DNA from: Nannocystis pusilla
GTDB lineage: Bacteria; Myxococcota_A; Polyangia; Nannocystales; Nannocystaceae
Assembly: GCF_049337375.1 (NCBI RefSeq)
Contig: NZ_JBMPIV010000001.1
Strand: one strand, 5' to 3'
DNA: 64,000 nucleotides
Shown piece after piece: positions 85 through 4,665 of the stretch. The notes below the pieces were generated by a model. It was not told the DNA's origin. It did not search any database and saw only the letters and a list, made by a program, of their open reading frames with translations. Every line of letters begins with the position of its first letter. Positions within the stretch are counted from its first letter, which is position 1. The position numbers were made by a program, and so were the translations under genes.

Positions 85-711
85 ATGCCGCCCGCAGCCC
101 GCATCACTGACATGCACGTGTGCCCGGTGCCGACCCACGTCGGCGGCCCGGTGGTCGTCGGCGAGACCTCGGTGCTCATCGGCATGATGCCGGCCGCGCG
201 CGAGGGCGACAAGCTCGTGTGCGCGACCGGCCCCGACAGCGTCGCTCGCGGCGAGCCGTCGGTCATCATCGGCAACAAGCCGGCCGCGCGCCTCGGCGAC
301 CCGACCACCCACGGCGGCACGATCGTCGTCGGCTGCCCGACGGTGATCATCGGCTCGTCGGCCCAGGTCGAGGCGCTGCGCACCGACAAGCCGTTCTGCG
401 AGGAGTGCGAGAAGAAGCGCAACACCACGCTGATCCTCGACCACCGCTACCACGACGACGAGCCGGTGCAGGAGGCCGAGTACGAGGTCGAGCTGCGCGA
501 CGGCACGATCCTCAAGGGCAAGCTCGACGCCAACGGCCAGGCCCGCATCGAGGGCGTGCCGCCCGAGCGGGCCCGCGTCCGCTACGGCCCCGACGTGCGC
601 ACGTGGGAGCGCAAGGACCAGACGCCGAACCCGACCTTCAAGGAAGAGTTCTCCGACAGCGACGCCGACGCGCTCGTCGACGCCGTCACCGGCCAGGGAC
701 AGCAGCGATGA
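85..711 (+). CDS. PAAR-domain protein (T6SS spike-tip type) with a C-terminal extension of about 110 aa
   Basis: There are three PAAR-like motifs (PAARITD, MPAAREGD, KPAARLGD) in a Gly/Val-rich beta-rich N-terminus, the classic PAAR repeat architecture. Codon usage is GC3-rich. The stop codon overlaps the next start (ATGA). Confidence 0.85.
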   Translation: MPPAARITDMHVCPVPTHVGGPVVVGETSVLIGMMPAAREGDKLVCATGPDSVARGEPSVIIGNKPAARLGDPTTHGGTIVVGCPTVIIGSSAQVEALRTDKPFCEECEKKRNTTLILDHRYHDDEPVQEAEYEVELRDGTILKGKLDANGQARIEGVPPERARVRYGPDVRTWERKDQTPNPTFKEEFSDSDADALVDAVTGQGQQR

Positions 712-2111
712 GCGGCGGCGAGTACATGCGCGCCATCACCGACGTCGGTGAGTGGATCTGGGGCCTCGTCCGCGGCGGGTTCAACGAGCAGCAGTCGATC
801 AGCCAGATCATCGTCGACGCCATCATCGGCATGATCCCCGTGGTCGGCGACGTCACCGCGGTGCGCGACCTGCTGGCGGTGGTCATCCGCCTCGCCGACC
901 ACCCCGAGCGGCGCCAGGAGACCATGCAGTGGGTCGAGCTGGCGATCTGCCTGTTCGCGCTGATCCCGGTGGCGGGCGGCGCGATCAAGGGCGTCGGCCG
1001 GCTGCTCGCGCGGGTCGGTCGCAACGCCGCCGATGCGGCGCCGGTGCTGCGCGAGGCGATCGAGCTGCTCAACCGGCTCGGCAACGGCAACGCGGTCCGC
1101 TTCATCCGCGAGCTCGACCTGTCGCGCTACACCGCCGAGCTGCAGCGCCACTTCCGTCAGCTGGTCGGGCGCGTCACCACCACGGTCGACGCGATCCTGC
1201 GCCGCGGCCGGTGGGTGCTGCCCAGCAGCATGATGGATCGCCTGCGCCAGCTGCGAGCGGCGATGCAGGAGCTGCTGGCGCTCGGCGACCGCATGATCCC
1301 GCAGGCGGTGCGCGACCTGAACGGGTGGCTGCACACGGTCCAGCGCCACATCTACGCCGGGTCGTACCACGAGATCCCGTCGAGCCTGCGCGCCGAGACG
1401 CGGGAGCTCGAGCGCGGCCTGTTGCGCGAGCGCCGGCTGCCGAGTCAGGCCGATCTGCCGTTCCCGCCGTCGACGATCGCCAACTACCGCCACCGCGTGC
1501 CGTGGCCCGACCTGCGCCAGGGCGGCTTCCACAACCCGTCGCACAACCCGTACCGCAACATCCGCACCTTCAGCGGCAACCTGCAGGCGGTCGCGCTGCG
1601 GCACCCGCGGAAGATCTACCGCGTGGTCGAGAACGCCGACGGCCGCGCCGGCGCCTTCTGGTCGCTCGAGAAGCCGGCGAGCGGCCGCGCGTGGCGCGAG
1701 GACTACGCGGTGCTCGAGTCGTGGAACAGCGACGGCCACTACATCGAGTTCGAGATCCCGCCGAACATGACGCTGTACGTGTGGCAGGGCAAGGTGGCCA
1801 GCCAGGTCGAGACCGACGCGGCGAAGGCGACCTACGGGCAGGTGCTGAACGGCGGCGCGCAGCAGCTGCTGATCGACCTGCGCCACCCGAGCAACGCGTG
1901 GGCGATGAGCCACGTCGAGGCGCTGCCGCTGCACCCGACCGGCTGGCGCGATCACATGGGCGTGAACGTGCCGAACGAGCAGACCCGTGCCATCCTGCTC
2001 GGGCACGCCGAGCGCGCCGAGCGGGTCGGCGAATTCACGGCGGTCACGCGCGTCACGGGCGCGGCGGTCCGCGGCTCGCAGGCCGAGGAGAGGCGGCAGA
2101 GGCAGCAGTGA
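708..2111 (+). CDS. Putative secreted effector/toxin (467 aa) with two N-terminal hydrophobic helices and an uncharacterised C-terminal domain
   Basis: It starts at the ATG of ATGA overlapping the PAAR stop and is in-frame with the tail of ORF 120..2111. The N-terminus (WIWGLV…IIVDAIIGMIPVVGDVTAV…LAICLFALIPVAGGAI) looks like a TM/pre-toxin region. The remainder has protein-like composition and no obvious family. Confidence 0.7.
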   Translation: MSGGEYMRAITDVGEWIWGLVRGGFNEQQSISQIIVDAIIGMIPVVGDVTAVRDLLAVVIRLADHPERRQETMQWVELAICLFALIPVAGGAIKGVGRLLARVGRNAADAAPVLREAIELLNRLGNGNAVRFIRELDLSRYTAELQRHFRQLVGRVTTTVDAILRRGRWVLPSSMMDRLRQLRAAMQELLALGDRMIPQAVRDLNGWLHTVQRHIYAGSYHEIPSSLRAETRELERGLLRERRLPSQADLPFPPSTIANYRHRVPWPDLRQGGFHNPSHNPYRNIRTFSGNLQAVALRHPRKIYRVVENADGRAGAFWSLEKPASGRAWREDYAVLESWNSDGHYIEFEIPPNMTLYVWQGKVASQVETDAAKATYGQVLNGGAQQLLIDLRHPSNAWAMSHVEALPLHPTGWRDHMGVNVPNEQTRAILLGHAERAERVGEFTAVTRVTGAAVRGSQAEERRQRQQ

Positions 2112-2992
2112 CGGAGCTCCAGACCATCGTCCGGCCGTTCTCGCCGGCCGAGCTCGCTATCGACGCCACCACCCTCGCGCAGGTGTTCTATCGCCTGCGC
2201 CGATACTCGTCGCTGACCTACGTCAAGCGCTGCACGCTGCTCGTGCAGAAGTTCAGCGCCGGCTTCGACGCGTGGGCCCGCAAGTCGGGGCCCGATCACA
2301 CCCAATTCGCCCGCAAGGCGCTGCAGACGGTGTATCCGCCGCTGGCGGCGCTCGAGCAGGTGCCGGGCCTTTTGCTCGGCAACCAGAAGACGCGGGCCTA
2401 CGACGCGCTGATCCAGGCCGGCTTCCTCGCCGAGCTGCTCGGCCACCGCTTCGACGGCGGCATGCGCTGGGAGAAGTTCGGCTACAACTACGGCGAGCGG
2501 CCGAGCGTGGGCCTGTTCGCGTGGGCCGAGAAGGCGGTGGTGATGGCGGCGCAGATGCAGCGCACCGCCGAGGCCAGGTGGTCGCACACCCTCATGGCCC
2601 TGCAGCGCCCGGCGCCGCCGCACGCCCACCTCCAGCCGATGCCGCCGGCCGACGGCGTCGTCGTCGACCCGGACGAGGTCGTGCCGGTCACCGGGGTGTG
2701 GGTGCCGCTCGACGTGCCGAACGGCTGCCCGAACTACCTGGTCGAGGGCGTGCCGGCGCCGAAGCTGACGGTCGAGACCCAGCGCGTCGACTCCGAGGGC
2801 TACCCCGGCGACCCCGAGAACCCGCCGATCGCCGCGCGCACCGACTACGTCTACGGCGAGGTGCCGACCCGCTGGCAGCTGGCGTGGGACGACATCCGCT
2901 ACCGCGCCGGCGTCGAGATCGACGAGCCCGAGTTCCTCGACGAGGAGACCGAACTCCCGGCCTGGCCGCCGGCCCATCCGCCTTCGCCATGA
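2108..2992 (+). CDS. Hypothetical protein (294 aa), a candidate cognate immunity protein
   Basis: Its GTG start overlaps the stop of the previous gene (GTGA). Composition is balanced and non-repetitive and there is no signal peptide. The position immediately downstream of the putative toxin supports the call. Confidence 0.6.
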   Translation: MTELQTIVRPFSPAELAIDATTLAQVFYRLRRYSSLTYVKRCTLLVQKFSAGFDAWARKSGPDHTQFARKALQTVYPPLAALEQVPGLLLGNQKTRAYDALIQAGFLAELLGHRFDGGMRWEKFGYNYGERPSVGLFAWAEKAVVMAAQMQRTAEARWSHTLMALQRPAPPHAHLQPMPPADGVVVDPDEVVPVTGVWVPLDVPNGCPNYLVEGVPAPKLTVETQRVDSEGYPGDPENPPIAARTDYVYGEVPTRWQLAWDDIRYRAGVEIDEPEFLDEETELPAWPPAHPPSP

Positions 2993-3888
2993 GCGCGAGC
3001 CCTGCCACGAGCCCCCCACCCGACGGACCGCCCAGCCTCGAGGGACCCGCGCCGCGACTGGTCGTCGAGGTGCTGTGGGGGCCGGAGCAGGGCAAGAAGG
3101 CGGTGATCGCCGCGGGCGGGGCGATCACGGTCGGGTCGGGCGCGGCGGCCGGCCTGTGCCTGGCCCACGACGAGGCGCTGGCGCCGATCCACCTGCAGAT
3201 CGAGTGGGACGGGCGGGTCGCCGCGGTGCAGGCGCTGGTGAACGAACGGACATGTCTCGACGGACAGCCGATGCGCGAGGGCAGGAGCGGCCACGGCGGC
3301 TGGGTGCGCGCCGGCGCGTCCGACCTGGCGCTGGCGATCGAGCGCCACACGCGGCCCGATCCGCCGCCGACGCCGGAGAGGGTGGCCGCGGCCGCGCCGG
3401 CGATCGCGGCCTTGCGAGCGCTGCCCGGCCGGCTGTTCGCGGTCGCCGACGCGTCGCGCGACGAGCGGGTGCGCGTGCTCCTGCGCGAGTCGCCGGCCCG
3501 CTACCGCTCGCTGTTCGACGGCTGGCAGGGCGACGCGATCGCCGAGTCTGCGCCGTACCTGGTCGAGCTCGGGCCGCCGCACCCGGAGCTGCTCGACGAT
3601 CTGGTGGTCGAGGGCTGGCACACCGACGACGCCCGACGCGACGGCGACGGCGGCTGGGCGATCTTCCTGTCGGTGCCCGACGGCCGCGAGTTCGAGGCGG
3701 TGCGCCGCCACCTGCGCAAGTTCCTCATGGTCGAGCTCGATCGCGAGAAGGTCTACTTCCGCTTCTACGACCCGCGGGTGCTGCGGGCGTTCGTGCCGAC
3801 CTGCACCGCCGCCGAGCGGCGCGAGTTCCTCGGCGACATGGGGTGGCACATCACCTGTCCCGAAGGACTGCTGAGCTTCCGCGCCTGA
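2989..3888 (+). CDS. FHA-like N-terminal domain fused to a DUF4123-like (T6SS effector adaptor/chaperone-type) C-terminal domain
   Basis: Its ATG overlaps the previous stop (ATGA). The N-terminus (ITVGSG…LCLAHDEALAPIHLQIEWDG…LVNERTCLDGQPM) follows the FHA pattern. The C-terminus has LFAVADASRDE … GW … FYDPRVLRAF motifs that are reminiscent of DUF4123. Confidence 0.6.
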   Translation: MSASPATSPPPDGPPSLEGPAPRLVVEVLWGPEQGKKAVIAAGGAITVGSGAAAGLCLAHDEALAPIHLQIEWDGRVAAVQALVNERTCLDGQPMREGRSGHGGWVRAGASDLALAIERHTRPDPPPTPERVAAAAPAIAALRALPGRLFAVADASRDERVRVLLRESPARYRSLFDGWQGDAIAESAPYLVELGPPHPELLDDLVVEGWHTDDARRDGDGGWAIFLSVPDGREFEAVRRHLRKFLMVELDREKVYFRFYDPRVLRAFVPTCTAAERREFLGDMGWHITCPEGLLSFRA

Positions 3889-4365: not shown

Positions 4366-4665
4366 GGCGCTCGGGACAGGTCGAGGGACGAAGCGGGCCG
4401 GCGGAGCGCGGGCCGACGCGGGCCTGTGCGAAGGGACAGGTCGAGGGACGAAGCGGGCCGGCGGAGCGCGGGCCGGGGCGGGCCTGTGCGAAGGGGCAGG
4501 TCGAGGGACGAAGCGGGCCGGCGGAGCGCGGGCCGGGGCGGGCGACGCGGGCCTGTGCGAAGGGACAGGTCGAGGGATGAAGCGGGCCGGCGCGGCGCGG
4601 GCCGGGGCAGGTGGGGCGGGCCTGTGCGAAGGGACAGGTCGAGGAGGCCGACGCAACCGCGACAG
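4366..4665. repeat. Tandem repeat with a 62-69-bp unit, about 4.5 copies (GGGACAGGTCGAGGGACGAAGCGGGCCGGCGGAGCGCGGGCCG…GGCCTGTGCGAA)
   Basis: Near-identical units start at about 4366, 4432, 4494, 4561 and 4630. They lie in a non-coding spacer of roughly 0.9 kb between the DUF4123-like gene and the histidine kinase. Confidence 0.8.

Follow-up and report, generated by a model that had tools for sequence, protein, structure and literature searches.

The genome of Nannocystis pusilla raises the question of what a secretion spike delivers when its cargo resembles nothing recognizable in sequence. The window considered here, a 64,000-nucleotide stretch of contig NZ_JBMPIV010000001.1, holds a gene for a 467-residue protein at 708-2111 on the plus strand, behind the gene of a PAAR protein. 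This protein is probably a type VI secretion system (T6SS) cargo effector that would be delivered on a connector domain of the PAAR protein, act through a toxin domain hydrolysing NAD(P)+, and be neutralized by an immunity protein of the Imm71/72 type. An earlier annotation, made from the letters only (the sequence-only reading), had singled it out as the carrier of a candidate novel toxin domain.

Predicted fold and activity of the toxin domain

The sequence-only reading assigned the toxin to the C-terminal roughly 300 residues and saw no recognizable motif there. Two modules are found instead, and the toxin domain proper, delimited by a domain model and by conserved residues, covers about 160 residues (residues ~265-425, positions 1500-1982, plus strand). 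The lack of a motif is borne out by Pfam, NCBIfam, and PDB sequence searches, all of which were blank for this region. The whole effector yields only a sub-threshold DUF4112 match in Pfam and NCBIfam, leaving the toxin domain unmatched, and this domain is also without a Pfam match in 24 homologues at E ≤ 10 and in 10 other architectures. Searches of PDB sequences with the single sequence and with two C-domain profiles returned noise only (e.g., adseverin or NDUFS1). Neither PF14021 (TNT) nor Ntox46 was matched, and no sequence similarity to the solved toxins of the NAD(P)+ glycohydrolase (NADase) type was detected. A similarity search with the C-domain alone recovered one fragment, a limit set by the word prefilter, and a profile of the short, polymorphic-type domains matched only unnamed proteins. 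With nothing in sequence or profile searches to tie the domain to NADase toxins, its homology to them rests on predicted structure.

A full-length AlphaFold2 model (98 homologues; mean predicted local distance difference test, pLDDT, 82) matched Tse6 only weakly in Foldseek, amid helical-bundle noise, and a domain-only model was, therefore, needed. The AlphaFold model of residues 236-430 reaches a pLDDT of 94 and a predicted template modelling score of 0.88, and was compared to solved structures with two programs. In Foldseek, NADases make up all of the top seven hits, with probabilities of 0.89-1.00, and the next hits drop to 0.01. The closest structure is Tne2 (6B12), with a fold score of 12.9 (107/119 residues at 2.5 Å) in one comparison and a value of 2.7e-5 in the other, followed by Rhs1-CT (Tne3; 9.3 and 2.2e-3), Tse6 (Tne1; 8.9 and 8.2e-4), and the Aspergillus NADase (7.7 and 1.1e-2). 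The Fusarium NADase (7.3) and TNT (4.3) are matched by score in the first comparison and lie outside the top hits of the second. The palm domain of TNT-type NADases consists of a twisted seven-stranded antiparallel sheet with flanking helices (PMC10539506). In the model, the order of elements agrees with this: one helix is inserted between the third and the fourth of seven strands, and another stands ahead of the final strand. The predicted fold is, in this model, that of the TNT-like NAD(P)+ glycohydrolase toxins, and it has no other match. Of the sequence-only reading, the view that the toxin escapes recognition by sequence is upheld, and the fold predicted from the model of residues 236-430 is a known one, that of NADases. 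That the domain is novel in its fold or its activity finds no support, as the model falls within the TNT-like NADase toxins and the sequence family was most probably catalogued in 2012.

Conservation would fit the same group of enzymes. Across 34 diverse toxin domains, R305, W318, R330, A334, Q366, G382, and Q386 are invariant, and F288, W329, V335, W359, and G361 are nearly so. The only invariant polar residues are R305, R330, Q366, and Q386 (plus W318), with no invariant glutamate or aspartate. In TNT-type NADases, function depends on a glutamine that is strictly conserved, on an aromatic residue that cannot be spared, and on arginines, represented by F330 and Q387 in Tne2, W344 and Q413 in Tse6, F727, R757, R780, and Q822 in TNT, and F1386, R1418, and Q1452 in Rhs1-CT (PMC10539506, PMC6398120). 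The spacing of R305, R330, and Q366 (25 and 36 residues) resembles that of R757, R780, and Q822 in TNT (23 and 42 residues). Hydrolysis of NAD(P)+ is the activity predicted for the modelled domain, and it is a known activity of T6SS toxins (Tne1-Tne5).

Spike, connector, and immunity genes around the effector

The open reading frame at 708-2111 is confirmed as a real gene. Its 467 codons are uninterrupted, and their translation holds the peptides quoted in the sequence-only reading (GMIPVVGDVTAV, WNSDGHYIEFEIPPNMTLYVWQGKV, and ILLGHAERAERVGEF). Because the GC content of 72% gives long open reading frames in all frames of the window, length alone is no proof of coding. The claim is borne out by the GC fractions at codon positions 1/2/3 (0.71/0.46/0.97), by hundreds of homologues, with full-length matches at identities from 97% to about 35% (E 0 to 1e-65), the most distant one cited being an E. 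coli protein at 26% identity, and by gene overlaps. The start codon, ATG at 708, shares the letters ATGA with the stop of the PAAR gene, and its own stop (2109-2111) shares letters with the GTG start of the immunity gene. The region is 97.3% identical to that of Nannocystis pusilla Na p29.

The gene order is vgrG, PAAR with its connector, effector, Imm71/72 immunity, and DUF4123 adaptor, all on the plus strand and with overlaps of 4 bases between genes. Of the vgrG spike gene, the window edge leaves the 3′ end, at 1-69; in N. punicea and N. pusilla Na p29, a VgrG of 705-733 residues (Phage_GPD, Phage_base_V, and Gp5_trimer_C) ends here, just before the PAAR gene. The PAAR protein (208 residues, 85-711) matches PF05488 at E 2.5e-22. 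Its cone corresponds to residues 1-~99 (85-381), and solved PAAR proteins match residues 1-99 at E 4e-23 and 5e-12. The sequence-only reading was right to put a PAAR protein ahead of the toxin; in the sister genomes, VgrG lies upstream. The immunity gene (294 residues, 2108-2992) is followed by that of a T6SS adaptor of the DUF4123 (Tap/Tec) type (299 residues, 2989-3888; PF13503, E 1.1e-24), whose match to the NCBIfam Tla1 chaperone model is weak. The adaptor's N-terminal ~100 residues (2989-3300) are FHA-like, with a Yop-YscD_cpl match at E 3e-5, below the gathering threshold. A tandem repeat array lies between genes after the DUF4123 gene (4373-4644; period 60/69 nucleotides, 2.4-3.7 copies, 81% GC). 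The alignment to N. pusilla Na p29 is interrupted there, at 4444/4562, which points to a difference in repeat copy number.

This layout is a standard T6SS cargo effector island. The effector gene adjoins spike genes and an adaptor gene, the immunity gene lies directly 3′, and the module is probably a T6SS cargo effector-immunity pair in an orphan vgrG island of the Nannocystis genome. A match to a housekeeping family was looked for and none was found, and gene context excludes a housekeeping function. The effector has no PAAR match and none of the four operon proteins matches DUF1795 in Pfam. With the PAAR protein encoded separately, the class of prePAAR/Eag-dependent transmembrane effectors (that of Tse6) was rejected.

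The downstream 294-residue protein, suggested earlier as the partner of the toxin, is identified as an immunity protein. It matches Imm72 at E 4.5e-9 (36.7 bits, for a gathering threshold of 25) and Imm71 at E 2e-4, below threshold, with an Imm71-like helical half at residues 24-128 and an Imm72 beta half at residues 182-274. The Imm72 WxDxRY motif is present as WDDIRY at residues ~263-268. The protein is soluble, with neither a signal peptide nor a transmembrane segment (maximum Kyte-Doolittle mean over 19 residues, KD19, 1.04), and the target of the toxin is, therefore, expected in the cytoplasm. Among 80 genome loci that represent the closest relatives of the effector N-domain, an Imm71/72-like gene lies directly downstream in at least 62, including those of Holophaga, Burkholderia, and Enterobacter. 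Behind several homologues (loci L004, 10298-13374; L006, 9787-12449; and L043), two or three tandem Imm72-type genes follow, forming immunity arrays.

Between the PAAR cone and the effector lies a further domain. The PAAR protein bears a C-terminal extension of ~110 residues, which holds a connector domain of ~88 residues (PAAR residues ~113-200; about 421-684, plus strand), recognized by homology to the segment that precedes effector N-domains. The connector ends 20-170 nucleotides ahead of the N-domain in 77 of the 80 related loci. Its carrier is the extreme C-terminus of VgrG in 31 loci, a PAAR protein in 5 (Nannocystis only), the effector reading frame itself in 12 (Fibrobacterota, including an Hcp-connector-effector fusion), a small upstream reading frame in 13, and an upstream reading frame cut by the contig end in 16. 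Other proteins with this toxin domain have the connector as well, and for the connector itself Pfam offers no more than weak hints of a CarboxypepD_reg-like (transthyretin-like) domain. The pattern of fusion and fission argues that the connector binds the N-domain and sets which part of the spike carries the effector. The loci in which a single-sequence search detects DUF4123 are the five of Nannocystis, two of Polyangiaceae (with the connector on a small reading frame), and one other, and an adaptor might perhaps be needed when the connector lies outside VgrG. As a sequence marker, the connector offers a simple way to tell which spike protein carries this effector, and it might also serve to load engineered cargo.

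In the full-length model, effector residues 3-219 form helices only, delimiting an all-helical N-terminal domain (residues 8-218, 729-1361, plus strand) with a pLDDT of mostly 80-97. A disordered linker (residues 220-240) separates it from the alpha+beta domain (residues ~245-425, pLDDT about 95). The membrane-insertion-like character that had been attributed to the N-terminus is supported by two strongly hydrophobic helices, at residues 34-60 (807-887) and 78-96 (939-995), whose KD19 is about 2.05. Long amphipathic helices are also present in the model. The match to DUF4112 (PF13430) has an E-value of 8e-4 and 20.0 bits, below the gathering threshold of 23.3; weak DUF4112 matches are found in 23 of 24 effector homologues (best E 7.6e-5), and the likeness is no more than a remote one. 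The N-domain is conserved to the same degree as the C-domain. A WHIX secretion domain was considered for it and rejected, as the WHxxxH motif is absent, the size is different, and WHIX carries periplasm-targeting toxins. The effector tail (residues ~426-467, 2030-2111) is modelled with low confidence, yet contains the nearly invariant residues L431 and E435 and a predicted terminal helix.

Toxin family, relation to Ntox48, and rival explanations

A hidden Markov model of the toxin domain, searched against 1.84 billion representative proteins, recovered 744 clusters with a cut-off of E ≤ 1e-3, of which 391 also pass E ≤ 1e-10; most of the clusters share the same N-domain. Named members, which include those of Enterobacter, E. 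coli, and Burkholderia, are all labelled 'hypothetical protein'. Conversely, the toxin domain is present in 78 of the 80 N-domain loci, the remaining two being truncated. Its core also occupies the C-terminus in other architectures, for example, in a VgrG-PAAR fusion of 1141 residues (P0212), the gene of which adjoins tssC, and a fusion of Hcp to the effector (P0083) also exists. In addition, the core ends proteins of 550-900 residues whose 3′ genes encode unrelated 179-residue proteins without a Pfam family. Polymorphic toxin cassettes behave in this way, recurring in unrelated architectures. In Enterobacter, the homologue is part of the main T6SS cluster, with VgrG on one side of it and a protein that joins Imm71 and Imm72 on the other (Imm72 at E 1e-33, Imm71 above the gathering threshold), and an E. 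coli homologue is placed between VgrG and PAAR/TssM. In E. coli DETEC-P881, an intact 487-residue homologue (26% identity) follows VgrG, with a different, 355-residue gene product encoded downstream, and in GPEC1186 an IS21 element has split the effector (E. coli loci L011, 5279-8873, and L012, 4410-6982). Of 5426 complete E. coli genomes, another 358 retain just the downstream gene, apparently as an orphan immunity gene.

A literature search on Ntox48, Imm71/72, DUF4112, and NADases in combination with DUF4123 found no paper on the toxin family. Closest to it comes a P. chlororaphis protein called 'Tse6', which is uncharacterized and has a pair of DUF4112 domains (PMC10100999), and the FIX-Ntox15/NADase effector of Stenotrophomonas is a different protein. 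The family probably has a name already. Imm71 and Imm72 are usually fused, occur in Acidobacteria and beta-/gamma-proteobacteria, and adjoin one toxin family, Ntox48, which has the conserved residues R, [RK], Q, and Q (Zhang et al. 2012, Biol Direct 7:18, PMC3482391). The present family shares this residue signature, through the invariant R305, R330, Q366, and Q386 of the broad alignment, and it shares the T6SS linkage and the directly 3′ fused Imm71-Imm72 partner with its WxDxRY motif. It is found in Holophaga (Acidobacteria), many Burkholderiales, and Enterobacterales, in agreement with the phyletic spread of Ntox48. Ntox48 is also linked to Imm60/62/66. By its partners and signature, the toxin family is most probably Ntox48.

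Several points weigh against a cargo effector that hydrolyses NAD(P)+. No sequence or profile search ties the toxin domain to Tne1-5 or TNT, and the equivalence of Q366/Q386, W318/F288, and R305/R330 to the catalytic residues of Tne2, Tse6, or TNT is a proposed one. The ADP-ribosyltransferase (ART) superfamily includes transferases and cyclases too. On the delivery side, a single-sequence search detects DUF4123 near just 8 of the 80 loci, which speaks against a general requirement for the adaptor. The helices of the N-domain carry invariant charged residues (D37, R53, D54, and K94), its DUF4112 match remains sub-threshold, and its transmembrane insertion is suggested by hydropathy only. Finally, a different fold, the RNase fold BECR (Barnase-EndoU-ColicinE5/D-RelE), was predicted for Ntox48 by Zhang et al. 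(PMC3482391).

This last point leads to the alternatives. An RNase of BECR fold would agree with the Imm71/72 partner, the R, [RK], Q, and Q residues, and the phyletic pattern of Ntox48, but neither fold search of the domain model gives any BECR protein, which leaves the RNase prediction unsupported and makes this explanation very improbable. The ART-like fold could also be used to ADP-ribosylate a protein or RNA, as by Tre1, Tre23, and RhsP2, or to cyclise NAD. It is an unlikely alternative: glycohydrolysis is favoured over ADP-ribosyl transfer because a catalytic glutamate is absent and the fold scores are far higher for NADases than for transferases.

Killing might instead be the work of the helical hydrophobic N-domain, by depolarization or pore formation (as for Tse4, Ssp6, and Tme), the C-domain being an accessory or a second 'blade'. 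The two strongly hydrophobic helices together with the long amphipathic ones, a degree of conservation that equals that of the C-domain, and the two domains, Imm71 and Imm72, of the immunity protein would all suit this idea. It is, nevertheless, quite improbable. Membrane toxins are normally countered by membrane-bound immunity proteins, and the one found here is soluble and cytoplasmic, with no transmembrane segment. The C-domain is met without the N-domain at the C-terminal end of unrelated carriers, as is typical of a toxin cassette, and pore-formers give no significant match to the full-length model (probability <0.4).

For a cargo effector with an NAD(P)+-hydrolysing toxin, the course of events may be sketched as follows. 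The effector N-domain would dock on the ~88-residue connector at the PAAR C-terminus, loading would be assisted by the DUF4123 adaptor, and the PAAR cone would cap the VgrG spike. In a neighbouring bacterium, the hydrophobic N-domain may, in the way suggested for Tse6, enter the inner membrane and help the toxin domain to reach the cytoplasm, where it would split NAD+ and NADP+ into nicotinamide and ADP-ribose(-phosphate), and growth would stop. Catalysis would involve Q366 or Q386 as the invariant glutamine, W318 or F288 as the aromatic residue, and the arginines R305 and R330. In the producer cell, the cytoplasmic Imm71/72 protein would bind the toxin and block its cleft.

A bolder proposal, put forward tentatively and at somewhat less than an even chance, is that these proteins add a sixth family, distinct in sequence, to the T6SS NAD(P)+ glycohydrolases, one identical to Ntox48 and moved from the RNases to the NADases, with a delivery system of its own. 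This would combine a mobile connector, on VgrG, PAAR, Hcp, or the effector, with a DUF4112-like helical N-domain that docks on this connector and, by entering the target membrane, lets the toxin translocate itself, without prePAAR, Eag, or Rhs. The analysis suggests that Ntox48, listed in 2012 as a predicted RNase, should perhaps be re-read as an NADase. The predicted activity also gives a testable function to 'hypothetical' genes that lie in Enterobacter and E. coli T6SS clusters and beside vgrG in many genomes of the Burkholderia group.

Comparison with known systems

The closest match in structure is Tne2, a Pseudomonas protegens effector that acts as a T6SS NAD(P)+ glycohydrolase; identity over the structural alignment is 16-19%, and neither sequences nor profiles connect the two. 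Tne2 has a PAAR domain of its own, whereas the present effector has none and follows a separate PAAR protein or, in other genomes, VgrG. In Tse6, the PAAR and transmembrane domains are part of one polypeptide, which needs an Eag chaperone (DUF1795) and EF-Tu, and the toxin domain corresponds to Pfam Ntox46. The present system differs from Tse6/Tne1 of P. aeruginosa (4ZV0/4ZV4) in its separate PAAR protein, in the DUF4123 adaptor encoded nearby, and in the absence of an Ntox46 match. In comparison to TNT (the C-terminus of M. tuberculosis CpnT), the fungal NADases, and Tne3/Tne4 (C-terminal domains of Serratia Rhs1), the present toxin domain has no match to PF14021. The TNT motifs DRxG and QRxL are also absent from the toxin family, which has IYR(V/I) and WRxxxAV instead. 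The carriers differ as well: TNT, Tne3, and Tne4 depend on an Rhs cage or an outer-membrane channel, and the toxin domain described here would travel on a free cargo effector.

Immunity may be a further point of difference. The immunity proteins of Tse6, Tne2, TNT, and Rhs1 are reported to be mutually unrelated (Hagan et al., PMC10539506), and the one found here is a fused Imm71/Imm72 protein of ~300-380 residues across the family. Compared to Ntox48 as described in 2012, the residues, partners, and distribution agree, and the difference lies in the fold, which was predicted to be that of a BECR RNase and is modelled here as that of a TNT-like NADase. Overall, the predicted fold and the likely activity of the toxin domain belong to a known type. 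New are a widespread, uncharacterized family of NADase-like proteins that stands apart in sequence, a probable change of class for Ntox48, and the mobile connector domain.

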